Origin: Candidatus Hydrogenedentes bacterium UBA6118
GTDB lineage: Bacteria; Hydrogenedentota; Hydrogenedentia; Hydrogenedentales; SLHB01
NCBI GenBank assembly: GCA_002422525.1
Contig: DIWA01000015.1
Coordinates: 33,797-97,796 of the forward strand
Direction: 5' to 3'
DNA length: 64,000 nucleotides
Both the position numbers and the translations under genes were made by a program. The notes beneath the pieces were generated by a model. It was not told the DNA's origin. It saw nothing but the letters and a program-made list of their open reading frames with translations, and made no database searches. Of this stretch, positions 20,885 to 54,859 are shown one piece after another (positions within the stretch are counted from its first letter, which is position 1; the number at the start of each line of letters is the position of its first letter).

Positions 20885-20916
20885 TCGGTTGATCGGCGTC
20901 GACGACTGTAATCGCG

Positions 20917-22359: not shown

Positions 22360-22436
22360 TGGCGTACCCGGAGGGACTCGAACCCCCAACCTTCTGGTCC
22401 GTAGCCAGACACTCTATCCAATTGAGCTACGGGTAC
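22360..22436 (-). tRNA. tRNA-Arg (anticodon ACG)
   Basis: Reverse complement GTACCCGTAGCTCAATTGGATAGAGTGTCTGGCTACGGACCAGAAGGTTGGGGGTTCGAGTCCCTCCGGGTACGCCA folds as a cloverleaf. Acceptor 7 bp, D-stem GCTC/GAGT, anticodon stem TCTGG/CCAGA, loop CTACGGA, T-arm GGGGG-TTCGAGT-CCCTC, and an encoded CCA. Confidence 0.85.
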
Positions 22437-28265: not shown

Positions 28266-28396
28266 AGGGGTCCGACGGGAGTCGGGGAAGCCCACGGTAC
28301 ATATGCTAGGACCCCTCGGGGGGTCTGGAACCGGCCTTTCCGCAGGATGCGATCTCGATCGGGGATCGCTTTGGGAAGGCCCTGAGGAGCCAACAG

Positions 28397-30772
28397 GTGA
28401 GAACGAGAATCTGGCACGTGATGCTGGTGGGCCTGTGTGGGATCGCCCTGCTGTTCGCAGCGCCCGGGGCCGAGGCGTTCTTCCCCCTGGGCGTGTTCCT
28501 GACGGATCTGGAATACGGGGATCCGTTGCGCATCCCGCTGTGGACGCTGAACTACATGGACACGAACGGGGACCGGGACGTGTCCGGAGCGAACGAGGGC
28601 ATCCCGATCACGTTCCAGGGCGGCGATGACGGATGGACCGTGCAGGAGATGCAGGCCCTGCAGGATGGGTTCGAGGTATGGGAGCGCGTGCCGTCTTCGT
28701 TCCTCGCCTTCCAGTACACCCAGCCGGTGGAGCAGGCGCTCGAGACGTCGGATGACTTGGGGTCGATCGACTTCTTCAACTACGTGGCGAATGACGCGGG
28801 CGGCGCGCTGGTTCCGGCGGGGTTCGCCGGGATCACGTTCATCTCGTATGTGGCCGAGAGCGGTTTCTTCACATACAACGGCCAGGCGATCGAGGTGACG
28901 GGGCCGCAGATCCTGGATGCGGATATCGCGATCTACGGGGATGTGATTCAGACCAGCCGCGACATTGATTTCTCGAATGCCACGGACCAGTTCGATGCGG
29001 GGGTGCCGCTGTCGGGTCTGGTGGTTCAGTTGGCGGGGATGATGGCGGGGCTTGGCCAGAGTCCGATGACCAATACCGATGAAGTGCAGGTGCAGACGGC
29101 GGGCGGCGAGCTGACGCTGCTCGTGGATCCGCTGGTGTACGCGGACCGGGTGTTCTCGGGGAACCTGCAGATGGTGGGCGTGACGCCGAGCATGTACCCG
29201 AATCTGGTGTACACGGACCTCGGGAATGACATCTACCGGCTGGCGTGGGAGGACCTCGCGCCGGACGACATCGCGGGGATCACGTTCCTGTATCCGCGGG
29301 GCGACTTGTCGAACTTCTTCACGGTGCAGCAGGAAGCGCGGTACGCGTCGCGGGCCGGGTTCCCGACGGCGCCGATCGCGGGCGGGTTCATCGAGGCCTG
29401 GTGTGACGTGGACGACAACGCGAACACGCCGCGCGTACCGATGTTCAGCACGCTGACGGGGATGTATGAGAACCAGGCGCAGTTCTCCGGGTTCTTCCGA
29501 CTGTACAACCTGTTCCGGCAGATCGAGTCGCCGACGGCCGTGCCGTTCACCGCGTCGTATACGCTTACGCTGAGCGAGCTGGAGCCGCCGGAGGGGTTCA
29601 CGGCGGACTTCTTCGACTCGCTGCACAACGGGCTGTACGCGGGCGGCGGCGGGTTTGCGTTCTCGACGAACTACCCGCATCAGACGTTCCTGGAAGGCGG
29701 CGAGAATATCATGAGCCGGGACCGGCATGATGAGGGCACGCCGCTGATGTACGATCCGGTGCGCGCGGAAGTGGTGAGCGCGGTGTCGGGGCGCACGCTC
29801 GATCAGATGCTGCCGGGAACGCGGCCGATGTTCGGCGAGTCGGATGCGCAGAACGTGTGTCCGTTGACGCTCGCGGCGCGGCTGGCGAAGACGCAGAACG
29901 GTCCGCGGCTGTTGCGGCAGTTCCGCGACGACGTGTTGCTGACGAATGCGCTGGGCGCGGCCGCGGCGGACGCCTACTACCGGATGGCGCCGACGATGAG
30001 CGCGTTCCTGATGGAGTACCCGATTGCGATGAGGACGGCGCAGGCGATGGCGGAGCTGACGGAATGGGGCATCGCGCATGCGCGGATGCTCGCGGCGCTG
30101 TTGTTGGCGGCGATCGGCGCGGCCTTCGCGATGCGGCGGCGGGTCGTACGCGCGGGCGTCGCGGCGGGATTGATCCTTGCTGCCGCGATCGTGTTCGCGG
30201 GCGGCACGGCGGACGCGCAGGCGATCGACTATTCGATCGAGAAGGCGGTCTCGCTGAGCGATGACATTCTGACCGGTGAAGTGACGTCGCTGCAGTGCCG
30301 GATGAACGACAACGGGCAGATCATCACGGACGTCTCGATCGAGATCGAGGACACGATGAAGGGCGCGTTGAATCGTACGGGGACGCTGCATTTCAGCCAG
30401 ATTGGCGGCGAAGTGAACGGCGTCACGACGTATGTACCGCAGTATCCGCGCTGGCGGCAGGGCGAGGAGGTCGTCGTGCTGATGAAGCGGAACGCGGTGT
30501 TCGGCCACATGGCGGTGTACGGCGTCGGCGGGAAGTTCGAGGTGAAGACGGACGAGGAGACGGGCAAGAAGTACGTCGTGGGTTCGACGGCGCTGGCGAA
30601 GCTGGGCCTGGATAGAGCGCGGCCGACGATAGAGAAGCGTGACGGAGCCGAGGCGTCGGAAGACGGCCCGGCGCAGGGCGTGGACCTGGACGCGTTCAAG
30701 GCGTATCTGGAGTCCGTGGCGGCGGAGCAGGCCGCGAACGAGGAGGCGGCGCGGACGGTGTCCGACGAGTAG
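28397..30772 (+). CDS. large secreted protein (791-aa ORF) with internal copy of the C-terminal sorting-like module, then an in-frame second signal-peptide-like segment and a 190-aa domain
   Basis: GTG at 28397 follows GAGGAG by 7 nt. Signal peptide VRTRIWHVMLVGLCGIALLFAAPGAEA. The module CPLTLAARLAKTQNGPRLLRQFRDDVLL...DAYYRMAP spans aa 488-578 and ends in TM MLAALLLAAIGAAFA plus MRRR. Then VVRAGVAAGLILAAAIVFAGGTADAQA and a soluble domain follow to the stop at 30770-30772. Confidence 0.65.
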   Translation: MRTRIWHVMLVGLCGIALLFAAPGAEAFFPLGVFLTDLEYGDPLRIPLWTLNYMDTNGDRDVSGANEGIPITFQGGDDGWTVQEMQALQDGFEVWERVPSSFLAFQYTQPVEQALETSDDLGSIDFFNYVANDAGGALVPAGFAGITFISYVAESGFFTYNGQAIEVTGPQILDADIAIYGDVIQTSRDIDFSNATDQFDAGVPLSGLVVQLAGMMAGLGQSPMTNTDEVQVQTAGGELTLLVDPLVYADRVFSGNLQMVGVTPSMYPNLVYTDLGNDIYRLAWEDLAPDDIAGITFLYPRGDLSNFFTVQQEARYASRAGFPTAPIAGGFIEAWCDVDDNANTPRVPMFSTLTGMYENQAQFSGFFRLYNLFRQIESPTAVPFTASYTLTLSELEPPEGFTADFFDSLHNGLYAGGGGFAFSTNYPHQTFLEGGENIMSRDRHDEGTPLMYDPVRAEVVSAVSGRTLDQMLPGTRPMFGESDAQNVCPLTLAARLAKTQNGPRLLRQFRDDVLLTNALGAAAADAYYRMAPTMSAFLMEYPIAMRTAQAMAELTEWGIAHARMLAALLLAAIGAAFAMRRRVVRAGVAAGLILAAAIVFAGGTADAQAIDYSIEKAVSLSDDILTGEVTSLQCRMNDNGQIITDVSIEIEDTMKGALNRTGTLHFSQIGGEVNGVTTYVPQYPRWRQGEEVVVLMKRNAVFGHMAVYGVGGKFEVKTDEETGKKYVVGSTALAKLGLDRARPTIEKRDGAEASEDGPAQGVDLDAFKAYLESVAAEQAANEEAARTVSDE
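29858..30142 (+). other. C-terminal conserved module (copy 2), located internally in the 791-aa ORF
   Basis: Same Cys / [FL]RxFRDDVLL / G / YY..AP / hydrophobic helix / RRR order as copy 1. Confidence 0.6.
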
Positions 30773-30823
30773 GGCGGACGTCGGTGCGGCGGCCGAGTCG
30801 AACGAGCTGGTAAGTAGTTGATC

Positions 30824-30866
30824 GCGGCGGTCTCAGGGGTTCTGGGGCCGCCGCGTTGTGTGTGTG
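30824..30866 (+). terminator. GC-rich hairpin followed by a (TG)5 / U-G-rich tract
   Basis: GCGGCGG (30824-30830) pairs with CCGCCGC (30848-30854), then GTTGTGTGTGTG. It lies 50 nt after the stop of the 791-aa ORF. Confidence 0.35.
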
Positions 30867-31121
30867 CGGGGGCGGGGGGAGCGCGGGGTTTTGTAGCGCG
30901 TCGCGGCGAAGGGATACACTGGCAACCGCGCCCGTAACCCGAACGGCGTCAACCGCGTGCGGGCAGGGCGCGTTCCCGAAGCGGGTGATCATCCCGGGGG
31001 CGATTCGGCGCATGCGTGGGTCTGCCGCCGAGCGCGTAGCGCGCGGCCGGGATGGAGTGCGCCGACGCAGGCGACGGGGTGTCGTTTGCGGCGTACCTTG
31101 GCTGGAGTTATCGACGAAATC

Positions 31122-32030
31122 ATGTTGCGCGGTCTGCTTATCCGACAGGCGTTGATCGCGACGGACTTGGTCTTGGCGGGACTGGTCGTCGTGATGGCGT
31201 ACTTTGTGATGGCGCGGATCCTTGGGGATGACGCGGTGACGGCGGCGCCTGTGGAGCGGGTTGAGACCTCGACGGATGTGGGCGTGTTGCGCAAGCCGGC
31301 GGAACGCGGGGACTACGACGGGATCATCGCAGGCAATCTCTACGGTCCGGCGGCGGACGTGACGCGCGAAGATCCGGTGGAGGAGGCGGTGGTCGAGGAG
31401 CAGCCGTTGCGCCCGACGACGCTGCCGCTGAAGCTGTACGGGACGCTCGCGCTGGATCCCGAGGATCCGCTGGCGACGGCGGTGATCGAGGATGTGACGA
31501 CGCGCGTGAAGCAGACGTACTATCTGAACCAGCCGGTGAAGGATGGGTACGTGCTGCGCGAGGTGCACAAGCGCCGGGTCGTGTTGTACAACGAGTCGAC
31601 CGGGGCTCTGGAGGAGCTGGCGCAGGAGGACTTGCAGGTGGCGGCGTCCGAGACGCGGAGCGCGGCGAGTGCGCGGCCCGCGGGACGGAGTCCGGCCGGG
31701 GCGAACCAGGTGGTGGTGAACCGGCTCGACACGCAGCGCGAGCTGGAGTCAATGAACTTCGCGGAGTTCTACGCGCAGGTGAGTCCGCAGCTTGTGCGGG
31801 ACGAGGCGGGGAACGTGAAGGGCATCACGTCGCCGAATATCGACAAGGTGCCGCTGGCGCAGCGGTTCGGGTTCCAGAGCGGGGACGTCGTCAAGAAGAT
31901 CAACGGGGTGCAGATCGACAGCGAACAACGTGCGCTGGAAGTGATCAACCGTTTTCAGAATTCGAGCAGCCACTGGCTGACGATAGAGCGGAATGGCCGA
32001 GAACAGACACTCGTCGTGCGGGTGGAGTGA
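31122..32030 (+). CDS. GspC-like T2SS inner-membrane protein with C-terminal PDZ domain
   Basis: ATG at 31122. N-terminal TM LIATDLVLAGLVVVMAYFVMA. C-terminal PDZ-like segment VKGITSPNIDKVPLAQRFGFQSGDVVKKINGVQIDS. It sits immediately upstream of the secretin gene. Confidence 0.5.
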   Translation: MLRGLLIRQALIATDLVLAGLVVVMAYFVMARILGDDAVTAAPVERVETSTDVGVLRKPAERGDYDGIIAGNLYGPAADVTREDPVEEAVVEEQPLRPTTLPLKLYGTLALDPEDPLATAVIEDVTTRVKQTYYLNQPVKDGYVLREVHKRRVVLYNESTGALEELAQEDLQVAASETRSAASARPAGRSPAGANQVVVNRLDTQRELESMNFAEFYAQVSPQLVRDEAGNVKGITSPNIDKVPLAQRFGFQSGDVVKKINGVQIDSEQRALEVINRFQNSSSHWLTIERNGREQTLVVRVE

Positions 32031-32043
32031 CTGGGGACGTGGA

Positions 32044-34542
32044 ATGCTGAACTATCGAGATCCGTATGCGTGGGCGCGACGCGCGAGGAGGATCGGGCGG
32101 CGGACCGGCGTCGGGCTTGTCGCGGTCGCGACCGCGTTGGCGTTGACGGCGGGATGGGTTGCGTGGGTTCCGGCGGAGCGCGCCTGGGCGCAGGACGACG
32201 AACCGTACTACGAGGAGGAGTACATCGAGCCGGATCCGCAGGCGGAGGTGGACGAGGGGGCGGAGTACGAGGAGTACGTCGAGGAGGAGGAGCCTGTGTT
32301 GCGGCCTGTGGCGCCGCAACGGCCGGCGCCGCCGGCGCGCCCGCAGCCGATCCGGCCTTCGCGCGTACAACCGACCCAGGTGCGGCCTGGGACGACCCCG
32401 GCGGCCCCGGGGGCCGCGGCGGAGCCGAACCCGTACCGACCGAAAGAAGGGGCGGCGGCGACGGAGCCGGTGAGCATCGACTATGAGGGGGTGGAGCTGC
32501 AGGAGATCGTGAAGGCGATCGGCGCGGCGACCGGACGGAACTTTCTGCTCGACCCGCAGATCGGCGCGATCCCCGTGACGTTGATCTCGCACGCTCCGGT
32601 TCCCGCGAACATGCTGCTGGACGTGCTGCAGGCGGTGCTCGTCACGCACGGCTTCACGATGCGCGACACGCTGGACGGGAAGCTGATCAAGATTCGACCG
32701 ATTGACGAGGAGGGCGAGAATGCGCCGCTGGTGGTCGGGTCGACGGAGTCGACGGCGCGGTATGACGATTTCGTGACGCACATCGTGCCGGTGCGGTATG
32801 CGTCGGCCGAGGAGCTTGCGCGCCTGCTGCCGCGGCTCGGATCGCGGACGGCGACGGTGGACGCCTACGGGCCGACGAACACGCTGATCCTGTCGGACAA
32901 TGCGCGGGGCATTGAGAACATGCTGACGTTCCTCGCCGAGATTGACGTGCCCGGGTCGGAAGTGGTCATGGAGACGTTCACGCTGGATTACGCGCGGGCG
33001 GAAGTGGTGGCGGAGCAGATCCGGGAAGTGTTGATGGGCGACGAGGGCGTCGCAGGGGATCGGGCGGCAGCGGTGGCTCGGGCGCGGGCCCCGCAACCGG
33101 TGCGGCCGACGGTGCGGACGCCGGTGAGCGCGCAGGCGCAGCAGACGATCATCGGATCCGAGGAGCCGGTGTTGCAGATCGTGGCGGTGGATCGGCTGAA
33201 CATGCTGATCGTGCGGGCGAACGAGTCGCTGATGCAGCAGGTGCGATCGCTGGTGGATCGGCTGGACGTGCAGACGCCGATCGAGGCGAACAACCTGCAC
33301 GTGTATCCGTTGCTGAACGCGGACGCGGAGTCGGTGGCGGAGAAGCTGAACGCGGTGATCGGGCTGACGCCGCGGGCGGCGTCGGACCAGGGAGGGGGCG
33401 ACGCGCAGGCGGCGATCACCGAGGTGCAGCCGTTCGAGAAGAAGGTGCTGGTCGAGGCGTATCCGGAGACGAAGTCGCTGTTGGTCGTTGCGGCGCCGCA
33501 GGACTACGAGGTGATCAAGGAGCTGATCGCGCAGTTGGATGTGGCGCGACGTCAGGTGCACATCGAAGCGTTGATCATGGAGGTCAACATCCAGGATCGC
33601 TACCAGCTCGGGGTTGAGCTGAGCTCGTTGAGCGCGGAAGACGGATTCGCGCTGAATAACGTGATCTCGTTGGCGAACATCATGGCGAACGGGCCGCTGG
33701 CGGGCGTGGGCGGATCGGACAGTCCGGTGTTGACGACCGGCGTGCTGGACGGCGTGGTGTATCTGCCGGTGGCGGGCGAGGACGGCGCATTGACGCTGCA
33801 GGCGTTCCCAAAGATCCCGCTGTTGCTGACGGCGCTGGACTCAATCACGGACCTGGACGTGTTGTCGCAGCCGTTGCTGACGACGGTGGACAACGAGGAA
33901 GGGAAGGTGACGATCGGTCAGGAGGTGCCGGTGACAACGGGGACGCAGTCCTCGCTGAACCAGAGCGCGTCGAACAGCAGCGTTTACAGCCGGATCGAGC
34001 GCAAGGACGTCGGCATCAAGATGACGGTGCAGCCGCAGATCAGCGAGGGCGACAACATCTTCCTGGAGCTGGAGGTGGAAGTGTCGCAGCCGATCCAGAG
34101 CTCGGTGGGGGCGGATCCGAACATTGTGGGCCCGACGTTCTCGAAGTCGAACATCCAGACGCCGCTGATCGTGCGCGATGGATCGACGGCGGTTGTGGGC
34201 GGTCTGATCAGCGAGAGCATCGATCGGTCGACGCGACAGACGCCGTATTTCGGCGATGTGCCGGTGGTCGGGTGGCTGTTTCGGCGGAAGAACGACCAAC
34301 GGAGCAAGCGCAACCTCGTGGTGTTGGTGACCCCGCACGTGATCAAGGAGGGGGTCGACACGGACCGGATCACGGACTACCGACTGGACGAGTTCGGAGA
34401 GGCGAATGCGGATGTCGTGTTTGAGCAAGGGTTTGTGGAACGGATCCGGCGACGTCACGAGACGCGCACGCAGCACCATCCGAGCGGGTCGCGCGTGGAG
34501 CGTCTGCGCACAAACGAGTTTGATCGAGGGGAACTGCGGTAG
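32044..34542 (+). CDS. gspD: type II secretion system secretin GspD
   Basis: About 830 aa. Signal peptide RRIGRRTGVGLVAVATALALTAGWVAWVPAERAWA, a long Pro/Ala-rich linker, N0-N3 secretin-N domains, and the C-terminal secretin domain (VVGGLISESIDRSTRQTPYFGDVPVVGWLFRRKNDQRSKRNLVVLVTPHVI). Confidence 0.85.
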   Translation: MLNYRDPYAWARRARRIGRRTGVGLVAVATALALTAGWVAWVPAERAWAQDDEPYYEEEYIEPDPQAEVDEGAEYEEYVEEEEPVLRPVAPQRPAPPARPQPIRPSRVQPTQVRPGTTPAAPGAAAEPNPYRPKEGAAATEPVSIDYEGVELQEIVKAIGAATGRNFLLDPQIGAIPVTLISHAPVPANMLLDVLQAVLVTHGFTMRDTLDGKLIKIRPIDEEGENAPLVVGSTESTARYDDFVTHIVPVRYASAEELARLLPRLGSRTATVDAYGPTNTLILSDNARGIENMLTFLAEIDVPGSEVVMETFTLDYARAEVVAEQIREVLMGDEGVAGDRAAAVARARAPQPVRPTVRTPVSAQAQQTIIGSEEPVLQIVAVDRLNMLIVRANESLMQQVRSLVDRLDVQTPIEANNLHVYPLLNADAESVAEKLNAVIGLTPRAASDQGGGDAQAAITEVQPFEKKVLVEAYPETKSLLVVAAPQDYEVIKELIAQLDVARRQVHIEALIMEVNIQDRYQLGVELSSLSAEDGFALNNVISLANIMANGPLAGVGGSDSPVLTTGVLDGVVYLPVAGEDGALTLQAFPKIPLLLTALDSITDLDVLSQPLLTTVDNEEGKVTIGQEVPVTTGTQSSLNQSASNSSVYSRIERKDVGIKMTVQPQISEGDNIFLELEVEVSQPIQSSVGADPNIVGPTFSKSNIQTPLIVRDGSTAVVGGLISESIDRSTRQTPYFGDVPVVGWLFRRKNDQRSKRNLVVLVTPHVIKEGVDTDRITDYRLDEFGEANADVVFEQGFVERIRRRHETRTQHHPSGSRVERLRTNEFDRGELR

Positions 34543-34547
34543 CCGCC

Positions 34548-36302
34548 ATGGTTGAGATGGCCGAGAGCCGGATCTGCGAGATTCTCGTGCGTAACGGCCG
34601 CCTGCATCCGGAGCAGGTGGACGAGGCGCTTGAGCTGCAGAAGATCCGCCCGAAGCGGATCGGCGAGCTGCTGTTGGATCTCGGGTATATCGAAGAGGAT
34701 GAGCTGTTGGAAGCGCTGAGCGAGCAGTTCGGGATCCCGTTCGAGACGGGGATTCGCGAGCAGCTCGACTCGTCGCTGACGACGCGGGCGCCGATCGGGT
34801 TCATCCGCGAGTACCACATGGTGCCGCTGCGCAAGAACGGCTCGGCGTACTACGTGGCGCTGAACGATCCGGCGAACCTGCCGTTGCTGGACGATCTGCG
34901 GCTGCTGTTGGGCGGGCCGGTGACGCCGGTGCTGTGTCGTCGGGAAGATATCCAGGCGGTGATCGACGGGTACTTTGACCAGCAGGGCGAGAACGCGGCG
35001 GACATGCTGGACAGCATCGTGCTGGACGAGCATGACGACGATGAGCCGGGGTCGATCGACCTGATGGACGGCGATCGCGACCTGCTGGACCTGGCGAACG
35101 AAGCGCCGATCATCAAGCTGATCAACCTGCTGATCTCGGGGGCGGTGCGCGAGCGCGCGTCGGACATTCACATCGAGCCGTTCGAGCGCGAGGTGAAGGT
35201 GCGGTATCGCATCGACGGCGTGCTCTACGACAAGTTCAACGTGCCGAAGTCGCAACAGGCGGCGGTGGTGTCGCGCATCAAGATCATGGCGCGGCTGAAC
35301 ATCGCGGAGCATCGGCTTCCGCAGGACGGGCGCATCAAGATCCGGCTGAGCGGGAAGGAGATCGACATTCGCGTGTCGGTGATCCCGATTCAGCACGGCG
35401 AGCGCGTGGTGATGCGTATCCTGGAGAAGGGCAGCTTCCTTTTCGGGCTCGAAGAGCTGGGGATGGCGCGACAGGACTACGAGCTGGTCGACAAGCTGTT
35501 GCGGAGCCCGCACGGGATCATGCTGGTGACGGGCCCGACGGGCTCGGGAAAATCGACGACGCTATACGCCTGTCTGCAGCGGGTGCTGTCGCCGGATATC
35601 AATGTGATCACGGTCGAGGACCCGGTCGAGTATCAGATGTCGGGGGTGGGCCAGATTGAGGTGAAGCCGAAGATCGGGCTGACCTTCGCGCACGCGCTGC
35701 GGAGCATTCTGCGGCAGGACCCCGATGTGATTCTGGTGGGCGAGATTCGCGATCTCGAGACGGCCGACATGGCGGTGCACGCATCGCTGACGGGGCACCT
35801 GGTGTTCTCGACGCTCCACACGAACGACAGCGCGGGGGCGATCACGCGGCTGGTGAACATGGGGATCGAGCCGTTCCTGGTGACGTCGTCGACGATTGCG
35901 ATCATGGCGCAACGGCTTGTGCGGAACATCTGCCCGGACTGCAGGGAAGCGTACGAGCCGGATCTCGAGAGTCTGCTTGAGCTCGGGCTGACCGAGGAGC
36001 AGGCGCGGGGCAAGTCGGCGTATCGGGGGCGGGGCTGCGCGAAGTGCCAGAACCGGGGCTATTACGGCCGGACGGGGATCTTCGAGCTGCTGGTGATGAC
36101 GCCGCGCGTACAGAATCTGGCGTTGCGGGGGGCGGACTCGAACCAGATCAAGCGCGAGGCGAAGAAGTATGGCATGCGCACGCTGCGCGAGGACGGGGCG
36201 GCCAAGGTGATGCGCGGCGTTTCGACCATCGAGGAGGTGTTGCGGGTGACGCGCGACGATATCCTCGAGGAGCTTCCGGAGCCGGGCGATGGCGGTCTAT
36301 GA
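34548..36302 (+). CDS. gspE: T2SS ATPase GspE
   Basis: N-terminal T2SE_N domain. Walker A GPTGSGKSTT, Asp box, Walker B ILVGEIRD. Tetracysteine motif CPDC...CAKC. Confidence 0.9.
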   Translation: MVEMAESRICEILVRNGRLHPEQVDEALELQKIRPKRIGELLLDLGYIEEDELLEALSEQFGIPFETGIREQLDSSLTTRAPIGFIREYHMVPLRKNGSAYYVALNDPANLPLLDDLRLLLGGPVTPVLCRREDIQAVIDGYFDQQGENAADMLDSIVLDEHDDDEPGSIDLMDGDRDLLDLANEAPIIKLINLLISGAVRERASDIHIEPFEREVKVRYRIDGVLYDKFNVPKSQQAAVVSRIKIMARLNIAEHRLPQDGRIKIRLSGKEIDIRVSVIPIQHGERVVMRILEKGSFLFGLEELGMARQDYELVDKLLRSPHGIMLVTGPTGSGKSTTLYACLQRVLSPDINVITVEDPVEYQMSGVGQIEVKPKIGLTFAHALRSILRQDPDVILVGEIRDLETADMAVHASLTGHLVFSTLHTNDSAGAITRLVNMGIEPFLVTSSTIAIMAQRLVRNICPDCREAYEPDLESLLELGLTEEQARGKSAYRGRGCAKCQNRGYYGRTGIFELLVMTPRVQNLALRGADSNQIKREAKKYGMRTLREDGAAKVMRGVSTIEEVLRVTRDDILEELPEPGDGGL

Positions 36303-37539
36303 ATACCAGGCCATAGCGCGGAGCTCGGGCAAGCGGGTGAAGGGCGTGATCGACGCCGACTCGCCTGCGGCGGCGCGACGCAAACTGCGCGAACAGGACA
36401 TGATGCCGACGGCGGTATCGGAGTCGTTCGGCGGCGGCGGGGCGAAGCCGGCGGGGCGTGCGAGGTCGGCGAACGGGTCGGGCAAGGCGCCGGCGGGGGG
36501 ATTCGGGCGCGTTCCGCAGCACGAAGTGTCTGTGATGACGCGGCAGATGGCGGTGTTGTTGCAGGCGGGGATGCCGTTGGTCGAGGCGCTGTCGGCGCTG
36601 ATCGAGCAGACGGCGAACGTGCGGCTGAAGAAGATCATTTACGACATTCGCGACCGGGTGAACACGGGCGCGCGGATGGCGGATGCGCTGGGCGCGCACC
36701 GGCGGGTGTTCTCCGAGTTGTACATCAACATGGTCGGCGCGGGCGAGGCCAGCGGGGCGTTGGAGCAGGTGCTGTTCCGGCTGGCGGACATGCAGGAGCG
36801 ACAGGTGCGGCTGTCGCGGCGGCTCCGCAGCACGATGATGTATCCGGCGTTCATGGCGGTCGTGGGCGTGAGCGTGGTCTCGTTCATGATGGTGGTGATC
36901 GTGCCGAAGATCACGGCGCTCTTCGACAAGCAAGGGCGGGAACTGCCGGCGATCACCGATTTCCTGATCGGCGTGTCTCGGTTTGTCGGGAACTACTGGC
37001 CGGCGTTGGTCCTGGCGGTGGTCGGGTCGTTTGCGTTGTGGCGGATGTGGGTGCGACGTCCGGCGGGGCGCCTGCAGTGGGACCGGCTGAAACTGCGCGC
37101 GCCGCTGTATGGGCCGTTGTACGTGAAGATCATCAGCGGCCGCATCGCGCGGACGCTGGGCACGATGCTGAGCAGCGGGCTGACGATGATGACGGCGCTC
37201 GAAGTGGTGAAGTCCGTCGTAGGCAACGCAGTGATTGAGTCCTCGATGGAGGACGTGAAGGCGAACGTACGGCGCGGCAAGGACCTCGCGGTGCCGCTGC
37301 GGGAGATGGGGGTGTTCCCGTCGATGATGCTGAGCATGATCGAGCTGGGACAACGCAGCGGCGAACTCGAAGGGATGCTGCTCAAGGTGGCGGACACCTA
37401 CGACGACGAAGTGGAGATGAGCGTAGACGGTCTGGTGAGTCTGCTCGAACCGGCGATGATCGTGGTGATGGCGCTGATCGTCGGGTTCCTGGTAATCGCG
37501 ATCCTGCTGCCGATCATGGACATGAGCAGCGGATTCTGA
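36289..37539 (+). CDS. gspF: T2SS inner-membrane platform protein GspF
   Basis: 416 aa with a duplicated GspF/PilC domain (two copies of the conserved periplasm-facing loop) and three TM segments. Its start overlaps the gspE stop. Confidence 0.9.
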   Translation: MAVYEYQAIARSSGKRVKGVIDADSPAAARRKLREQDMMPTAVSESFGGGGAKPAGRARSANGSGKAPAGGFGRVPQHEVSVMTRQMAVLLQAGMPLVEALSALIEQTANVRLKKIIYDIRDRVNTGARMADALGAHRRVFSELYINMVGAGEASGALEQVLFRLADMQERQVRLSRRLRSTMMYPAFMAVVGVSVVSFMMVVIVPKITALFDKQGRELPAITDFLIGVSRFVGNYWPALVLAVVGSFALWRMWVRRPAGRLQWDRLKLRAPLYGPLYVKIISGRIARTLGTMLSSGLTMMTALEVVKSVVGNAVIESSMEDVKANVRRGKDLAVPLREMGVFPSMMLSMIELGQRSGELEGMLLKVADTYDDEVEMSVDGLVSLLEPAMIVVMALIVGFLVIAILLPIMDMSSGF

Positions 37540-37585
37540 CGGCTTGGCCGCGACGCGCGGGCCAAGGGAAAAAGAGAGGTAACGC

Positions 37586-38026
37586 ATGGAGAACCGAAAA
37601 CGGCGAAGCGGATCGGGGATCTCGGGTTTCACCCTGGTCGAGCTGATGGTGGTGATCGTGATCATCGGGCTGCTGGCGGCGTTGGTGGTGCCGAAGTTCG
37701 TGGCCCGCACCGACGATGCCAAGGTGGCCGCGGCGAAGGCGCAGATCCACTCGCTGAAGCAGGCGCTCGAGATGTTCAAGCTGAAGACGGGGAGCTATCC
37801 GTCGACCAGCGAGGGGCTCGAAGCGTTGGTCAATAACGAGTATGAGAACTTCCTCGAGCAGGACGTGATCCCGCTCGACCCCTGGAACAACCCCTATGTG
37901 TATGCGTCGCCGGGCAGCGAGGGGCACGACTTCGAGATCATCTCCTATGGCGAGGACGGGGCGCCGGGCGGTACGGACTTCGCGGCGGACATCGTGAGCT
38001 ACAACCTGCAGGGCACTCGGAACTGA
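37586..38026 (+). CDS. gspG: T2SS major pseudopilin GspG
   Basis: Prepilin leader plus N-methylation site GFTLVELMVVIVIIGLLAALVVP. The GspG core (AKAQIHSLKQALEMFKLKTGSYP) has the conserved pseudopilin C-terminal residues. Confidence 0.9.
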   Translation: MENRKRRSGSGISGFTLVELMVVIVIIGLLAALVVPKFVARTDDAKVAAAKAQIHSLKQALEMFKLKTGSYPSTSEGLEALVNNEYENFLEQDVIPLDPWNNPYVYASPGSEGHDFEIISYGEDGAPGGTDFAADIVSYNLQGTRN

Positions 38027-38045
38027 CGACCGCGCGAGGCGGGCC

Positions 38046-38846
38046 ATGGACGATGCAGTGACAGACAGACGCGGGCGGGCCGGCGGCTTCACGCTGATTG
38101 AGCTGGGGCTCGTCATGTTCATCATCACGATCGTGCTGGCGCTGGCGCTGCCTCGTTTCGTGCCGATGATCGCGTTCAGCGAGCTGGAAGGGTCCGCGCG
38201 ACGGATCGCGGGGTACGGGCGGTCGCTGGTGGCGCACTGCGCGATGGTGCGCGAGCCGGTGACGTTCCGGATCGACATGGACGCCGGCGAGTACTGGTCG
38301 CTCCGGTGGCTGCCCGACGAAGACGAGGGTCTGTTCGAGGACGGCGACCTGTTCGACGAGGGCGCGTTCGCGACGCGGTCGGGATCGGAGCGCGACGCCT
38401 ACAACCCGAACCAGTATATGGACGCGGCCCAGGAGGACGCGTTGCGTGGGGAAGAGCTGGCGGTGCAGTTCGAGCGGTTCGTGCGGATGGCGACGACGGC
38501 GAAGGCGCGGAACGTGCCGGGCGACGGGCTGTTCGACGACCTGGATCCGCTGTTCGAGAAGGAATTCAGCCTGGACACCGATGAGGACGAGTCGCTTGAG
38601 GAGCTGAAGACGGCCCTGCTTGAGCGGGGCACGCTGCCGGAGGGGGTGCGGTTCGCGGCGATCGAGGTCGGGCCGCGGGTGTACGCGAGCGGTCTGGTGG
38701 AGATCGACGTGACGCCGCTGGGGCTGACGGAGGCGATCGAGTTCACGCTGGAGAACGAGCGGGGCGATCGGTACGTCGTAGCGTGGGACGCGATTACGGG
38801 CGGGGCCCGAATCGCGGAGGCGCCTCGGGCGGAGACGGGGTCATGA
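38046..38846 (+). CDS. minor pseudopilin (GspH-like)
   Basis: Prepilin-type N-terminus GGFTLIELGLVMFIITIVLALALP. 266 aa, longer than the canonical GspH. Confidence 0.55.
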   Translation: MDDAVTDRRGRAGGFTLIELGLVMFIITIVLALALPRFVPMIAFSELEGSARRIAGYGRSLVAHCAMVREPVTFRIDMDAGEYWSLRWLPDEDEGLFEDGDLFDEGAFATRSGSERDAYNPNQYMDAAQEDALRGEELAVQFERFVRMATTAKARNVPGDGLFDDLDPLFEKEFSLDTDEDESLEELKTALLERGTLPEGVRFAAIEVGPRVYASGLVEIDVTPLGLTEAIEFTLENERGDRYVVAWDAITGGARIAEAPRAETGS

Positions 38847-39235
38847 TGCGGCGGGGTCGGGAACGGCGAGGCGCAGCGGCCGAAGGGTTCACGCTGGTCG
38901 AGATCATGGCGGCGCTGGCGATACTGGGCACGGCGCTGTTCGTGCTCTTGGAGGCGCACTACGGCACGTTGCGGCTGTTCGATGCGGCGCGCGAGGAAGT
39001 GCAGTTCACGGAGATGCTGGAACGGGCGACCGGTATTGCGAAACTCGAGACGGCGGCGGGCAATCTGTCCGGATCGGACACGATGGGGAAGCGGTATCCG
39101 GGCTATGCATACCGGTTTGAGGCCGCGGCCATGGATGACACGCGGCCGGAGCTGCTCGAGTTGCTGGTCGAGGTCGAAGGGCCGACCGAAACGCGGCAGG
39201 TTCGTCTTCTGCTGTTCCTGCCGAGCCCGGGATGA
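38843..39235 (+). CDS. minor pseudopilin (GspI-like)
   Basis: The ATG overlaps the upstream stop (GTCATGATG). Prepilin N-terminus EGFTLVEIMAALAILGTALFVLLEA. Confidence 0.55.
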   Translation: MMRRGRERRGAAAEGFTLVEIMAALAILGTALFVLLEAHYGTLRLFDAAREEVQFTEMLERATGIAKLETAAGNLSGSDTMGKRYPGYAYRFEAAAMDDTRPELLELLVEVEGPTETRQVRLLLFLPSPG

Positions 39236-40239
39236 TAGCGATGACGACGCGTGCGGGCTCGTGTGCGCCCGCGAAGGGTTTCACGCTGCTGGAGTTGCTG
39301 ATCTCCCTGTCGATCCTCGTGGTGATCACGGCGATCGTGTATGCGTCGTTCTCGGGCGTGACGCGGACGATCGACGCGACGCGCACGGTGACGGAGGAGG
39401 TGCGGCTGCGGCAGTTCCTCGGGCAGAGTCTGCGGACGAACATCGCGACGGCGTACGTGGATCTGAGCTACACGGCGGAGGCGTTCCAGTTTCTCGGGGT
39501 GAACGAGGACGGCATCGACGGGGCGAAGGATTCGTTGCGGTTCATCTCGACGGCTTCATTGATCGGCGGGCTGACGTTGCCCGGCGATCTCAAGGAAGTG
39601 CGCTATGAGGTGCTGGAGCCGCGGGATTCTGAGATGGAGCTGTCGTGGGATGATGATGATGAGAATGACGAAGCGGCGGACGCGTTGACGGGGCTGGCGG
39701 CGGAACTGCGGGGCCGGCACGCTCGACTGCGGGTGACGGAGACGCCGCTGCTCGCCGGGAATGTCCAGTCGCTCGATGAGGAGACGGGGTATTTCACGCC
39801 GGCCGAAGGGTACGAGTCGCCTCACTGGGACGTGCCGATCCGTTCGTTCGATGTGCGGTACTTCGACGGCGAGCAGTGGGTGGATGAGTGGGACAGCCTG
39901 GCGGTCGGGCGGTTGCCGTGGGCGCTGCGGGTTCGGGTGAATTTCGCACGGACGGAGGCGTATCTGGAGCGGGAGCGGGACAAGAACTACGACGAGCTCG
40001 AGGATCCGGAGTTCGAGATGATCGTTACGTTGCCGGCGGGCGTGGGCGTGTTCGAGGACCAGCGCCAGCTTCCGATGGCGCAGGGCGGCGGCGCGGGCGG
40101 CATAGGCGCGGATGGCGCGTATGGAGGCGACGGAGCCGAAGGGGACGCCGAGGGGGTGCAGGGCCGTCCGAGCGGCCAGACTGGCGCGCCGTTCCAGACG
40201 TTTACGTTCGACATTCCGATGGGAGGCGGCGAGCAGTGA
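39232..40239 (+). CDS. minor pseudopilin (GspJ-like)
   Basis: Prepilin N-terminus KGFTLLELLISLSILVVITAIVYA. About 330 aa, consistent with GspJ size. Confidence 0.55.
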   Translation: MIAMTTRAGSCAPAKGFTLLELLISLSILVVITAIVYASFSGVTRTIDATRTVTEEVRLRQFLGQSLRTNIATAYVDLSYTAEAFQFLGVNEDGIDGAKDSLRFISTASLIGGLTLPGDLKEVRYEVLEPRDSEMELSWDDDDENDEAADALTGLAAELRGRHARLRVTETPLLAGNVQSLDEETGYFTPAEGYESPHWDVPIRSFDVRYFDGEQWVDEWDSLAVGRLPWALRVRVNFARTEAYLERERDKNYDELEDPEFEMIVTLPAGVGVFEDQRQLPMAQGGGAGGIGADGAYGGDGAEGDAEGVQGRPSGQTGAPFQTFTFDIPMGGGEQ

Positions 40240-41264
40240 GGAAGGCAGCCGCGCGACACGGTCGACGGGATGAAGGCATGGCGTTGCTGATGGCGTTGCT
40301 GGTGGTGGCGCTGCTCTCGGCGATCATCGTCGACTACGCCTATGAGGTGCGGGTGGAGGCGTCGTTGATCGGGAACCGCAGCGCGCAGTTTCGGGCCCAG
40401 CTTGCGGCGGAGTCCGCGGCGGCGCTGGGCATGTCGCTGTTGCTGGATGATATGGACAACCTGGACGGCGTGAGCGGGCCGGAGTTCGACGCGCTGACGG
40501 ATGTATGGGCGGGGGGCGTTCCCTATGAGGACTATGAGGACGGGGTGCTGCGGTGCTCCGTGACGGACGAGTTCGGCAAGCTGAACGTGAACGCGCTGCT
40601 GCGTGCGGACGGCGAGACGCGCCCGGTGGTGGAGGATGCGTTGCGGGCGTTGTTCATTGCAAGGGGCGCGGAGGAGGATCCGGTGGACGCGATCCTCGAT
40701 TGGATCGATCCGGATGACGAACAGCGGACGACGGGGGCGGAGGCCGACTACTACATGGGCATGGAGGTCTCAGTAGGGTGCAAGAACGCGCCGCTGGACT
40801 CGATCGAGGAGCTGCTGATGGTGCGGGGGGTGACGCCGGACCTGTTCTTCGGAGACCCGGCGCAGGACCAGACGCCGTTGACGGAGCTGCTGACGGTGCA
40901 TGGGGACCCGAGCGGCAAGGTGAACGTGAACACGGCGCGCCGGGAGCTGCTGGACGCGTTCGGCGAGGCGTTGGGCCGCCCGGGCTTGGGAGAGATTGTG
41001 ATTCAAGCGCGTGAAGAGGCCCCGTTTGAATCCGTGCAGGATCTTCAGGCGCGGGGCATCTTGCCGACCCAGACGGCGAACCCCTCGGGGGAGAGCGGGA
41101 TTCCAATGGAGCTTGAGCAGCCGGCGACGGTGGCGGGGTACTGCTACCGGGTTCATGGCGACGGCATGGTGAATGACTGCAAGGTCCGGGTGACTGCGTA
41201 CGTGTGGCGCGATCCCGCGATCCCCGGCGGATTCCGCATTCTTGACTGGAGAACGGTGCAGTGA
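40236..41264 (+). CDS. GspK-like pseudopilin
   Basis: The GTG overlaps the gspJ stop (GTGA) and has a GGGAGG RBS. N-terminal TM MALLMALLVVALLSAIIVD. GspK-like body (GKLNVNALL..., GKVNVNTARRELL). Confidence 0.6.
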   Translation: MRKAAARHGRRDEGMALLMALLVVALLSAIIVDYAYEVRVEASLIGNRSAQFRAQLAAESAAALGMSLLLDDMDNLDGVSGPEFDALTDVWAGGVPYEDYEDGVLRCSVTDEFGKLNVNALLRADGETRPVVEDALRALFIARGAEEDPVDAILDWIDPDDEQRTTGAEADYYMGMEVSVGCKNAPLDSIEELLMVRGVTPDLFFGDPAQDQTPLTELLTVHGDPSGKVNVNTARRELLDAFGEALGRPGLGEIVIQAREEAPFESVQDLQARGILPTQTANPSGESGIPMELEQPATVAGYCYRVHGDGMVNDCKVRVTAYVWRDPAIPGGFRILDWRTVQ

Positions 41265-42805
41265 AAGTCAGCGCGAAGATAGGGGTGATCCAGATTCTGG
41301 AGGACCGGGTGCGTGCGTGCGTCGTGCAGACGGGCGGCGCGGCGCCGACGATGCTGGACCGCATCGAGACGCCGATCGGCGGTTCGACGGATGAGGAAGG
41401 CGCGGATCCCGCGGTCGATGCGGTGTGGAACGCAGTGCGCGGTCTGTCGTCCATGCCGAACTGCTATGTGCTGAGCGCAAGCAGCCTGGACAGCGTGGTG
41501 CGCGTGCTGCGGATCCCCGTGAAGGGTGCGCGGCGGGTGGCGGCGGCGGTGCAGTTCGAGCTGGAGCCGTACCTGGCGTTTCCGATCGAGGAGCTGGCGG
41601 TGGACCACTTGCCGATCCGCGAGGTCGAGGGTCAGACGGAAGTGCTCGCGGTGGGGATGCGTCGCGCCGTTCTGGACCGGGGGCTGGCGGCGTTGCGAGG
41701 CGCGGGCGTGGAGCCGGAGGGCATCGGCCTGGACGCGCTGGGACTGACGGCGCTGTGGCTGTGCGGCCGGAAACAGGTGAAGGGCCTGAACGCGCTGGTG
41801 CATTTCCAGGAGCGGGGCGCGACGCTGGTCGTGTTGGCGGATCGACACGTGGCGTTCATGCGGCCGATGGCGGATGTCACCGCGGCGTCCGTGCGGGAGG
41901 CGCCCCGGGTGGTCGCGCGCGAGATCACGAACCTGGTGCGGGCGTTTCTGACGCTGTCCCGCGCCAAGGAACCGCTCGCGGGCGTGCATGTGACGGGCCT
42001 GGCGCCGGACCCGGACCTGGAAGGCATGCTGGGCGAGTCGTTGAACGCGCCGGTGGCGTGGACGGACTTGAGCGAGGTCGTCCGGTATCAGGAGAAGAAG
42101 CCGAAAAGCGCGCGGAAGCGTTCGGCGGAGGGGGATGTCGAGGAGGCGGCGGAGGCCGGCCCGAACGTCTGGGAATCGCTGGCGGGAATGGCCTTCTCGG
42201 CGGCGGGCGGGGGTCCGGCGCTGAACTTCCGGCGCGGAGAGCTGGCGCCGCGCAATGTGCTGCAGGGCGTGGGGGGTCTGGCGGCGTTCACGCTGGCGAT
42301 GGCGGCGATCCTGTGCCTGAGCTACGCAGGGTACTGCTACGTGGACTATACGAGCAACGTGCAGCGGATTGAGCGGGCAGGCGAGGAGATCTGGCGGCTG
42401 TACACGGAGGCGTTTCCGGATTCGCCCGATGCGCAGGCCGGACGGCCGCCGATGGACATCGGCGGCGTGCGGACGCTGGCGCTGATGCGGCGGGACTTCG
42501 ATGAACACACGAAGCAGTCGAGCGAGCTGAACACGGCGATTCTGACGCGGCCGACGCTGTTGGATATTCTGAACGAGATCAGTACGCATCTGTCGGCGGA
42601 CAAGATTCTGCTGACGGAGCTGCGGGTGCGTTCGAGCAGGGAACGGAGCCAGCAGGTGAGCATCGTGGGCGAGCTGACGGATCCGGGGGCCTTCGAGCAG
42701 GAGCTGGAGAAGCTGCGACAGTCGAAGGTGCTCAAGGTGACAGGGGAGCCGACGATCTCCCAACGGCAGGGAAAGACGACCTTCACGATCACGGCGTCGA
42801 CGTGA
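41261..42805 (+). CDS. GspL-like protein (PilM/actin-like cytoplasmic domain + TM + periplasmic domain)
   Basis: 514 aa. The first ~330 aa are PilM/GspL-cyto-like (MKVSAKIGVIQILEDRVRACVV...). Then one TM (AAFTLAMAAILCLSYAGYCYV) and a PilN-like periplasmic region. Confidence 0.55.
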   Translation: MKVSAKIGVIQILEDRVRACVVQTGGAAPTMLDRIETPIGGSTDEEGADPAVDAVWNAVRGLSSMPNCYVLSASSLDSVVRVLRIPVKGARRVAAAVQFELEPYLAFPIEELAVDHLPIREVEGQTEVLAVGMRRAVLDRGLAALRGAGVEPEGIGLDALGLTALWLCGRKQVKGLNALVHFQERGATLVVLADRHVAFMRPMADVTAASVREAPRVVAREITNLVRAFLTLSRAKEPLAGVHVTGLAPDPDLEGMLGESLNAPVAWTDLSEVVRYQEKKPKSARKRSAEGDVEEAAEAGPNVWESLAGMAFSAAGGGPALNFRRGELAPRNVLQGVGGLAAFTLAMAAILCLSYAGYCYVDYTSNVQRIERAGEEIWRLYTEAFPDSPDAQAGRPPMDIGGVRTLALMRRDFDEHTKQSSELNTAILTRPTLLDILNEISTHLSADKILLTELRVRSSRERSQQVSIVGELTDPGAFEQELEKLRQSKVLKVTGEPTISQRQGKTTFTITAST

Positions 42806-42833
42806 CGGGCGACAGAGACCGGAGTACGCAAGG

Positions 42834-43343
42834 GTGAAACTACCGCAACTGGAGAAGCGAGAGCGGATCGTCGTCGCGGGCGGGGCCGCGGCCGCCGTGC
42901 TGATCGTCGGGTACTACCTGATCAGCGGCCCGCTGGAGGCTTACCAGCAGTCGCGCACGCGGGTTATCGCCGCGCAACGGGCGTTGGCGCAGGCTCAGAC
43001 GATGCATCGGCAAGTCATGGAATCGCGTTCCGACCGGGAAGCGGTGGAGCAGTTGCTCGCGGTGCGGGAAGGATCAAACCTGTTCTCGACCGTGACGCGG
43101 GCGATCCAGACGGCGAACCTGACGGACCGGGCGGAGTTGCAGAGTCAGCCGCGGCTCATGGCGAATGCGCAGGCGGTGCAGATCTCGCTGACGGGCGTGA
43201 GCATGAAGGAGCTGGTGGACTTGCTGTATGAGCTGTTCAGCGACAATCTGGTGGTGCTGCATCAGTTGACGCATCTGCGCCCGGCGCAGTCGGGGCAGGG
43301 GTTGGACTGCGCGTTCGTGCTTATCCAGCCGTCGACGGAGTAG
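42834..43343 (+). CDS. GspM/PilO-like bitopic protein
   Basis: 169 aa. The N-terminal TM AAAAVLIVGYYLISGPL is followed by a coiled-coil and ferredoxin-like periplasmic region. It is the last gene of the cluster. Confidence 0.5.
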   Translation: MKLPQLEKRERIVVAGGAAAAVLIVGYYLISGPLEAYQQSRTRVIAAQRALAQAQTMHRQVMESRSDREAVEQLLAVREGSNLFSTVTRAIQTANLTDRAELQSQPRLMANAQAVQISLTGVSMKELVDLLYELFSDNLVVLHQLTHLRPAQSGQGLDCAFVLIQPSTE

Positions 43344-43369
43344 GCGAGCGACTCGCAGCGCATGGAAAC

Positions 43370-43399
43370 GGCCCGACACGGACGGCGTCCGGTCGGGCC
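43370..43399. terminator. bidirectional hairpin between T2SS cluster and rpmG
   Basis: GGCCCGAC (43370-43377) pairs with GTCGGGCC (43392-43399). An inner imperfect stem ACGGACG/CGTCCGG extends it. It is followed by GAGATCTGTTG. Confidence 0.45.
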
Positions 43400-43426
43400 G
43401 AGATCTGTTGAACGATAGGGCGCGGG

Positions 43427-43597
43427 CTACTTCTTCTCGCGGTGCAGCGTGTGCTTGCGCAGCTTCGGGTTGTACTTCCTCAACTCGAGGCGGCCCGTGC
43501 TGTTCTTGACGTTCTTCATGGTCGTGTAGCGCGAGGTGCCGGGGGCTTCCGTGCACTCGAGCGTGACCTGGACGCGGTTGCCTTTTGCTTTTGCCAT
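43427..43597 (-). CDS. rpmG: 50S ribosomal protein L33
   Basis: Own translation: [56 protein letters not shown]. At 56 aa it is too short for the ORF track. It matches the L33 family pattern (NY.T.KN......LEL.KY.P....H..H.E.K). Confidence 0.85.
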
Positions 43598-43664
43598 GGT
43601 CGGTCTCCGTCACGCGCGGAACAGACGGGGTTCTCGCGCGGAAGTCCACGTTACAGGAGTTGGA

Positions 43665-43694
43665 TTTATACCCGAACGGCGGCGGCGAAGTCAA
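43665..43694 (-). promoter_or_regulatory. sigma70-type promoter for rpmG: TTGACT, 18-nt spacer, TATAAA
   Basis: On the minus strand, TTGACT is the complement of 43689-43694 and TATAAA the complement of 43665-43670. The leader to the rpmG ATG is about 60 nt. Confidence 0.45.
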
Positions 43695-43716
43695 ACCGAT
43701 GAATCAAGCCATCCAT

Positions 43717-43763
43717 GATCGTACCGGGGATCGTATCGTCGTGCCATTTGCGATCGTACCGGG
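43717..43763. repeat. three tandem GATCGTA(C/T)CG direct repeats
   Basis: GATCGTACCGGG at 43717 and at 43752, plus GATCGTATCG at 43729. They lie between the stop of the GH42-like gene and the rpmG promoter. Confidence 0.35.
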
Positions 43764-43771
43764 ACCTTCCG

Positions 43772-51676: not shown

Positions 51677-51985
51677 GTCTTTCCGTCCAGGTCGCGCACC
51701 CGGCGGGCGGCGCCGCGCGTTGGGCCCGGCTCCCGCGTCTTGAATGCGTACGGATGCACCGGGCCGGACGTTGACGGCAAGTGGGCCGGCGTGCGCTCGA
51801 CGAGGCGTCTGCGTTCCCCCGGTTGGTTCGACCGGCTGTGTGCGCGGCAATGATAGCAGGGGGCGTCGGTCGGCCACAATCCGGCGTCGAGCTGGACGGA
51901 GACGGCGGCGCAAAACGAGGCCGGAACGCAAGGGGAAAACGGCGCCTTGCGTTCCGGCTGCAAGAGAGTGCGGCCGAGGCCGCGC

Positions 51986-54277: not shown

Positions 54278-54298
54278 GAGTTGTGGTCTCCGTGGAGC

Positions 54299-54838: not shown

Positions 54839-54859
54839 GAGTCTAGCCCCTTTCTTCGA

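Follow-up and report, generated by a model that had tools for sequence, protein, structure and literature searches.

A gspC-to-gspM type II secretion operon of Hydrogenedentota and two anchored envelope proteins as its plausible but unproven cargo

The DNA analysed here, called the window throughout, is a 64-kb stretch of contig DIWA01000015.1 of Candidatus Hydrogenedentes bacterium UBA6118. It carries on its + strand, at 31122-43343, eleven collinear genes, gspC-D-E-F-G-H-I-J-K-L-M, of a type II secretion system (T2SS), and immediately upstream of them the genes for two large proteins, here named P1 and P2. To our knowledge, Hydrogenedentota is a candidate phylum known solely from metagenomes, and our search of the literature on the T2SS of Hydrogenedentes and on CFI-box-CTERM, the domain at the end of P1, found nothing relevant. 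In this paper we give a first, fairly complete description of a T2SS in Hydrogenedentota, identify it securely as a genuine operon of a type typical of the phylum, and weigh whether P1 and P2 are its cargo.

Sequence and Methods

Positions are window coordinates. The G+C content is about 67%, and coding frames in the window were called from the GC content of third codon positions (GC3). Families were assigned by scores against NCBIfam equivalog and Pfam cut-offs. Relatives' loci were collected by scanning one genome per species with a P2 alignment, which gave 68 loci; a scan of genome contigs with the single protein GspD as query gave no confirmed relatives. Synteny was counted on species-level loci, 57 of them informative for P1-P2 and 62 for P2-T2SS. 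Single loci are cited by L numbers where they have to be told apart.

Most of the 68 P2 loci are titled Hydrogenedentota, Hydrogenedentes or Hydrogenedens, and the rest bear other or generic labels. L007, L011, L015, L022, L023 and others carry the module under the titles 'uncultured Nitrospiraceae/Nitrospirales' or 'Bathyarchaeia archaeon', and these records are likely taxonomic mislabels or mis-binned contigs. The GspL-like protein has a 100% identical counterpart in an NCBI metagenome-assembled genome, and those of its homologues for which a source is named come under Candidatus Hydrogenedentes or Hydrogenedentota.

Results

Gene content and identity of the cluster

The features of the locus, with scores followed by cut-offs, are these:

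23094-28265, + strand: P1, about 1,723 aa, with Sec signal peptide, core, CoaZ-type repeats, two IPT/TIG domains and CFI-box-CTERM
28397-30772, + strand: P2, 791 aa, with signal peptide, matrix metalloproteinase (MMP)-like metzincin domain, CFI-box-like module, two hydrophobic segments and C-terminal beta-barrel
30823-30855, + strand: terminator-like hairpin after P2, 15-bp stem with 11 G-C pairs, tail TTGTGTGTGT, poor T-tract
31122-32030, + strand: GspC-like protein, with N-terminal transmembrane segment, HR (T2SSC) domain and C-terminal PDZ domain
31993-34542 (or from 32044), + strand: GspD secretin, with N0 domain, three Secretin_N stretches and secretin domain
34548-36302, + strand: GspE assembly ATPase, TIGR02533 664.5 against 630.25, with N-terminal tandem MshEN motif
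36289-37539, + strand: GspF inner-membrane platform, TIGR02120 428.8 against 424
37586-38026, + strand: GspG major pseudopilin (G|FTLVE), TIGR01710 140.3 against 88.85
38046-38846, + strand: GspH-like minor pseudopilin, 266 aa, acidic insert, called from class-III signal peptide and gene order
38843-39235, + strand: GspI-like minor pseudopilin, called from class-III signal peptide and gene order
39232-40239, + strand: GspJ-like minor pseudopilin, 335 aa, called from gene order, T2SSJ weak (25.3 against 28)
40236-41264, + strand: GspK minor pseudopilin, NF037980 147.1 against 130
41261-42805, + strand: GspL-like protein, 514 aa, equivalent to a PilM-PilN fusion, called from profile and fold
42834-43343, + strand: GspM-like protein, PF04612 37.6 against 27.8
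43563-43581, + strand: weak terminator-like site past the end of gspM, followed by a convergent gene

An earlier note on this DNA, made by a model from the letters alone, had read 31122-43343 as a gspC-to-gspM cluster, and all eleven genes are indeed present on the + strand with intact open reading frames (ORFs) of high GC3. Equivalog cut-offs are passed by GspD, GspE, GspF, GspG and GspK and Pfam cut-offs by GspC and GspM. GspD scores 425.3 against the cut-off of 351.35 for TIGR02517 and matches PF21305, three stretches of PF03958 and PF00263; its gene probably has its true start at the ATG at 32044, immediately ahead of the signal peptide. The PDZ domain that the note had given the GspC-like protein was recovered (PDZ_2 27.9 against 27), as was PF11356 (33.5 bits against 27), both just above cut-off, and no NCBIfam equivalog cut-off for GspC is reached (GspC_delta 83.5 against 150).

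The four minor pseudopilins of the note likewise hold, GspK by NF037980 and the GspH-, GspI- and GspJ-like proteins by class-III signal peptides of the form G|FTL(I/V/L)E. Family scores of the latter three are all sub-threshold, and their individual identities are assigned mainly by position. At 266 and 335 aa, GspH and GspJ are far above the usual length of pseudopilins; both have acidic, low-complexity inserts, and similar sizes are found in relatives. Of the coupling by several 4-nt overlaps, also proposed by the note, four cases were found, at H/I, I/J, J/K and K/L (ATGA at 38843 and 39232, GTGA at 40236 and 41261). The start of gspK was re-examined and placed at the GTG at 40236, behind GGAGG and overlapping the gspJ stop by 4 nt.

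Type IVa pilus (T4aP) models all remain under their cut-offs (PilB TIGR02538 614.6 against 675.65, PilQ 213.7 against 284.35, PilM 32.8 against 133), and neither PilT nor any other type IV filament component was found among the roughly 40 other large ORFs of the window. Because five equivalog and two Pfam cut-offs are passed, the order is collinear with four overlaps, PilT is missing and the Pil models stay below threshold, the identification as a T2SS is secure. As in the proteobacterial Gsp, Eps, Pul and Xcp systems, the eleven functions are present in the same order, with GspD, E, F, G and K at equivalog scores. The relatives L072, L073 and L074 show the identical C-to-M order with L-M last and no N or O, and in the GspM position of relatives stands a protein of about 180 aa after a PilM-type GspL. 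GspE identity among relatives within the phylum reaches about 80%.

Absence of gspO and gspN

The note had also remarked on the lack of gspO and gspN, and neither gene occurs in the window or beside the cluster in relatives. Pfam scans of the roughly 40 other large window ORFs gave no peptidase A24 or GspN domain, and tblastn with an approximate sequence of Pseudomonas aeruginosa PilD gave no match in the window, nor in the relatives' loci that were fetched. Since the relatives' loci are likewise without gspN and gspO, their absence from the cluster is a trait of the phylum and not an accident of one genome.

Prepilin peptidases are promiscuous and shared between systems (PMC4471445), and they are often encoded apart from the T2SS genes (PMC6668835). 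In the MacSyFinder T2SS model gspO is classed as 'loner, exchangeable' (PMC6668835), so the membership of this cluster among T2SS stands although no peptidase was found near it, and processing of the pseudopilins in trans is a reasonable inference. In L072 a type IV pilus (T4P)-like cluster (12627-21515) directly follows gspM and encodes three T2SSE-family ATPases, two of them with an MshEN N-domain, a PilC-like platform and several pilins. Such a second type IV filament system in the phylum could supply a prepilin peptidase.

The GspL-like protein

The GspL-like protein consists of a PilM-like cytoplasmic actin-fold domain, a long helix (333-384) that holds a hydrophobic membrane-spanning segment and, on the periplasmic side, further helices and a C-terminal domain of alpha/beta type (about aa 430-513). 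Its single-sequence scores fall below the cut-offs of GspL models (TIGR01709 44.2 against 65, PF05134 18.9 against 25.5) as well as that of PilM. When a profile of 49 family members was compared with all PDB sequences it matched PilM only (2YCH at 1.9e-14, 3JC8 and 5EOX) and no GspL. The fold is thus nearer to PilM, while the domain architecture of cytoplasmic actin-like domain, membrane segment and periplasmic domain is that of GspL.

The full PilM/actin-like domain claimed in the note is borne out by profile and fold, but the phosphate-2 ATP-binding motif within it is lost: in the profile alignment the 'DIGA' of PilM is replaced by HFQE in the window protein and by HVRE in the family consensus. 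By eye, the D-x-G phosphate-1 motif is not seen at the N-terminus. Because of these two features we infer a PilM-shaped, nucleotide-free scaffold for GspE. The PilMN complex has already been treated as the orthologue of GspL (PMC4471445). Like PilM-PilN of T4aP, the protein has the PilM profile and fold followed by a membrane segment and an alpha/beta periplasmic domain in the place of PilN; in contrast to that pair it is one fused polypeptide with an altered phosphate-2 motif, and it is encoded in a T2SS operon with no pilO, pilP, pilQ or pilT.

The N-terminal motif of GspE

Residues 8-60 of GspE (34569-34727) score 54.6 against a cut-off of 38 with the cyclic di-GMP (c-di-GMP) motif model NF053729. 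They contain two 24-residue motifs of the RLGxxLLxxGLLxxxxLxxxLxxQ type, at aa 8-31 and 37-60, separated by the 5-residue spacer KIRPK. Tandem 24-residue motifs with a 5-residue spacer define the MshEN domain, as described for MshE (PMC5013675). Compared by eye with that description, motif 2 matches all specified positions, with Tyr at one hydrophobic position, and motif 1 deviates twice, with Cys for Gly at position 3 and Arg for a hydrophobic residue at position 11. The region is kept in most of 45 aligned sequences, which include a few non-T2SS ATPase paralogues.

From the tandem motif, control of secretion by c-di-GMP is predicted. The earlier note missed the motif, and as c-di-GMP-binding T2SS ATPases are already known it is not a novelty. 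The window protein resembles the secretion ATPases MshE and PA14_29490 in having a tandem N-terminal motif on a T2SS/T4P ATPase (PMC5013675); it differs from them in the two departures of motif 1, and its binding of c-di-GMP is a prediction only. A protein with MshEN and HDOD domains is encoded directly after the T2SS in L073 (12064-13575, - strand), and an HDOD/HD protein near the module in L001 (1-82). These could be further c-di-GMP-related signalling partners.

P1

P1 begins with a clear Sec signal peptide, as P2 does, both read from the sequence. It ends in CFIATAAYGS...FRDDVLL, a transmembrane helix and RRRR, a C-terminus that scores 80.5 bits against a cut-off of 40 with NF041770 (CFI-box-CTERM). 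The core of about 1,400 aa is conserved and of unknown fold, and PADLOC, PDB sequence and Pfam searches gave it no function; domain scans of P1 found no recognisable enzymatic domain. Homologues variously carry adhesin-type TIG, PKD or Kelch modules.

In L040, L050 and L066 the P1 C-terminus has 'FFGC' in place of CFI-box-CTERM, and in L032 'LFCG'; in all four the tail is shorter, with the Cys motif followed by a hydrophobic helix and basic residues. These tails are a putative different sorting signal within the P1 family. The P1-P2 unit is bounded upstream by a tRNA gene (22363-22436, - strand, Rfam RF00005, 65 bits) at a distance of about 660 nt from P1. An SLT-TPR lytic transglycosylase encoded upstream of P1 in L001-L003 was considered as a member of the module and rejected, as no more than 12 loci have it and the window does not.

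P2

The structure model of P2 (pLDDT 78) has an N-terminal domain with the catalytic fold of matrix metalloproteinases, and Foldseek matched it to the catalytic domains of MMP-1, -3, -7, -8, -12 and -13 with a probability of 1.00 and target-normalised TM-scores of about 0.6. The zinc motif is lost in the window protein (VQLAGMMAGLGQSPM), which has VQLAGMMAGLGQ at the position of HExxHxxGxxH; of 73 homologues, 31 keep the motif intact and 42 have lost it. Judged from sequence and model, window P2 is an MMP-like metzincin that is predicted to be catalytically dead. Among the scored loci without an adjacent T2SS the motif is degenerate in 16 of 17, which may reflect a single clade.

The metzincin domain is followed by a helical module resembling that of CFI-box-CTERM (NF041770 36.9 against 40), which is internal and has no CFI box itself. 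After this module come a hydrophobic helix with an Arg cluster behind it, and then a second helix, which resembles a signal peptide and ends in AQA. The C-terminal part (about 30100-30772, aa about 570-791) is a beta-barrel that Foldseek matched weakly to an NTR/TIMP-like structure (1uap, E 7e-3), and a weak match to 'midcut-by-XrtH' was also seen. In its architecture P2 resembles two proteins joined at a sorting signal. Its family had 28 matches in a collection of 5.8 billion proteins, and all those with a source name are labelled Hydrogenedentes.

The note had described P1 and P2 as two large secreted proteins on the same strand. Position and signal peptides agree with this, but their sequences indicate anchored envelope proteins and not simple soluble exoproteins or plain exoenzymes.

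Conservation of the neighbourhood

In all 57 of 57 informative loci P2 is directly preceded by P1, and the two are an obligate pair. In L015 (5882-12334), L053 (4397-12442) and L055 (4175-12469) they form one uninterrupted frame of 2,150-2,764 aa, which could be a genuine fusion or an artefact of metagenome assembly. The T2SS adjoins P2 in 44 of 62 species-level loci (about 70%), including the two complete chromosomes L031 and L059, at P2 identities of 28-45%, and the relative orientation is nearly constant, with L040 as the single convergent exception. On the other flank of P1, 12 unrelated gene families were counted among 28 loci. Because the adjacency of P1-P2 and the T2SS persists at such divergence while the other flank turns over, it appears to be selectively retained.

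Between P2 and gspC the window has a spacer of about 350 nt with the hairpin at its start. The earlier note called this terminator weak, a description that fits only the T-tract, since the stem is strong. In most relatives a stable, GC-rich hairpin also stands just past the P2 stop, in several with a T-run, and the median spacer is 364 nt. The strong, recurrent hairpin and the long spacer make it most likely that P1-P2 and gspC-M are transcribed separately. Apart from the tRNA upstream of P1, Rfam scans of the spacer and of the entire window found no riboswitch or other RNA. No sigma-70-like promoter was found in 27500-44500, a result that is uninformative for this phylum.

Discussion

P1 and P2 as candidate cargo

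The note had joined the two upstream proteins and the T2SS into a cargo-plus-machine module. Its adjacency part is upheld by the 44 of 62 loci, but the hairpin and spacer make a single unit improbable, and the note's interpretation as a whole is partly supported. The closest parallel is the E. coli locus sslE/yghJ-pppA-yghG-gspC-M (T2SS-beta), in which sslE directly precedes gspC-M and shares its regulation (PMC3707838), and its product is exported by the T2SS and stays anchored at the cell surface (PMC3707838, PMC5012682). Both loci have a very large protein of metalloprotease class directly upstream on the same strand. SslE, however, is an N-terminal lipoprotein and M60-like, whereas the Hydrogenedentota locus encodes two proteins, anchored by CFI-box-type modules at the C-terminus or internally; the sslE locus has its own prepilin peptidase, pppA, and none is nearby here; in place of co-regulation a terminator-like hairpin separates the units; and the metzincin site of this genome appears dead.

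A second parallel is VesB of Vibrio cholerae, which is reported to be a GlyGly-CTERM-anchored, surface-retained T2SS cargo (PMC6219818). The GspC PDZ domain is reported to be implicated in the recognition of this cargo (PMC6219818, PMC12369372). Shared with Eps/VesB is a tripartite C-terminus of motif, hydrophobic helix and basic tail; the motif here is CFI-box-CTERM and not GlyGly-CTERM, no rhombosortase-like enzyme is encoded near the locus, and processing is hypothetical. We take the system itself to be an ordinary T2SS; that it has a dedicated surface cargo, in the way of E. coli sslE-gsp, is plausible but unproven.

The mechanism envisaged follows established knowledge of T2SS. Substrates exported by Sec would fold in the periplasm, GspC through its HR and PDZ domains would connect the inner-membrane platform to the GspD secretin, and the PilM-like GspL with GspM would hold GspE at the membrane. 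GspE would then drive growth of the GspG pseudopilus, with GspH-I-J-K at its tip, which would push substrates through GspD; the five prepilin-type proteins would be matured by a peptidase encoded elsewhere. P1, with its TIG domains and CFI-box-CTERM anchor, and P2, MMP-like with a related anchor, would be dedicated substrates retained at the surface in the manner of SslE and VesB, and this would require a step that frees or exchanges their membrane anchors. The evidence for P1 and P2 as cargo consists of synteny and signal peptides, and on it their role is plausible but unproven. As a whole, a T2SS mechanism with lineage-specific GspL and GspE and with P1 and P2 as dedicated, surface-retained substrates is the best explanation of the locus, and we lean towards it with slight confidence.

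A more far-reaching version, which we put forward as speculative and unlikely, would make the T2SS of Hydrogenedentota a dedicated export route for a new class of C-terminally anchored surface proteins, to which CFI-box-CTERM proteins such as P1 would belong together with the obligate partner P2, the anchor serving as a GlyGly-CTERM-like sorting signal and c-di-GMP gating the system through MshEN; P2 would originally have been the maturation protease of P1 and would have turned non-catalytic several times.

Several observations weigh against P1 and P2 as cargo of a working T2SS. We know of no genetic system for Hydrogenedentota. No prepilin peptidase was located in the window or the fetched loci, and no anchor-processing enzyme, rhombosortase-like or other, near the locus. 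The anchors are of inner-membrane type, a hydrophobic helix with an Arg cluster, C-terminal or internal, and would have to be cut or swapped before the secretin. P2 has lost its catalytic motif here, as have 42 of its 73 homologues, and so is not a classical secreted hydrolase. The recurrent hairpin and spacer mean that co-transcription with gspC is not expected. In 18 of 62 loci (29%) P2 is followed by unrelated or housekeeping genes (for an MFS transporter, a helicase or a TPP enzyme), and in the close relative L077 an FtsK gene stands upstream of gspC, with no P1-P2 at the locus.

Alternative explanations

Most of these points also feed the main rival, in which the T2SS is real and P1 and P2 are untransported, inner-membrane-anchored proteins of the periplasm or envelope, for example of a wall- or S-layer-associated complex. 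Adjacency would then reflect shared ancestry or regulation, and the true cargo would be encoded elsewhere, for example by the glycoside hydrolase, rhamnosidase and esterase genes of the window. The anchors, the hairpin and long spacer, the broken adjacency, the lack of a recognisable enzymatic domain in P1 and of a catalytic motif in P2, and the presence of GH42-like, GH78-like and esterase genes in the window all favour it. It does not readily account for an adjacency that has lasted in 44 of 62 species as deeply diverged as these against a changing flank on the other side, nor for the almost constant orientation, and proteins with C-terminal or lipid anchors are established T2SS substrates (PMC6219818, PMC3707838). 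We consider this rival somewhat unlikely.

It is improbable that P1 and P2 belong to the apparatus as accessory parts, or that the product of the whole locus is a T4P-like surface filament or an organelle for adhesion. The GspL-like protein is nearer in structure to PilM than to GspL, the match of GspE to the PilB model (614.6 bits, below cut-off) covers its full length and the N-terminus of GspE is PilB/MshE-like, the GspH- and GspJ-like proteins are oversized, and adhesin-type modules occur in various P1 homologues, all of which would suit such a structure. The HR and PDZ domains of GspC, the N0 domain of GspD and the equivalog matches of GspG and GspK are, however, specific to T2SS; there is no PilT, PilO, PilP or AMIN-type PilQ; L072 has a separate T4P-like cluster after its T2SS; and the absence of P1-P2 from the L077 locus means that they are not obligatory structural parts. 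That the cluster is a decaying or non-functional remnant, as the lack of an A24 peptidase or GspN gene in 64 kb might suggest, is very improbable, given eleven intact ORFs of high GC3, a layout without O and N that is kept across the phylum with GspE identities of up to about 80%, and the common encoding of prepilin peptidases apart from the T2SS (PMC6668835).

Neighbouring cargo genes, missing gspO and gspN, the homology of GspL with PilMN and c-di-GMP-binding T2SS ATPases are all documented already, and the locus does not overturn current understanding. What it adds, beyond the description itself, is the P1-P2 pair as the most testable candidate cargo, and a PilM-like GspL and MshE-like GspE that are useful intermediates for the divergence of T2SS and T4aP. 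If the cargo link is true, the uncharacterised CFI-box-CTERM domain would gain a connection to a transport machine, and C-terminally anchored T2SS substrates would have a second example.

Other genes in the window

A GH42-like gene lies at 43772-46264, and GH78-like/rhamnosidase and esterase genes are found elsewhere in the window. Convergent to the T2SS, at 46370-51985 on the - strand, are genes for DUF4340, ABC_transp_aux (GldG-like) and ABC ATPase proteins, which by their sequences resemble a gliding-type ABC export module. Genes for proteins like the NiFe-hydrogenase large subunit, an Oxidored_q6-family small subunit and the NuoF/NuoG Fe-S and flavoproteins, at 52826-57423 on the - strand, probably form a soluble bidirectional hydrogenase module.

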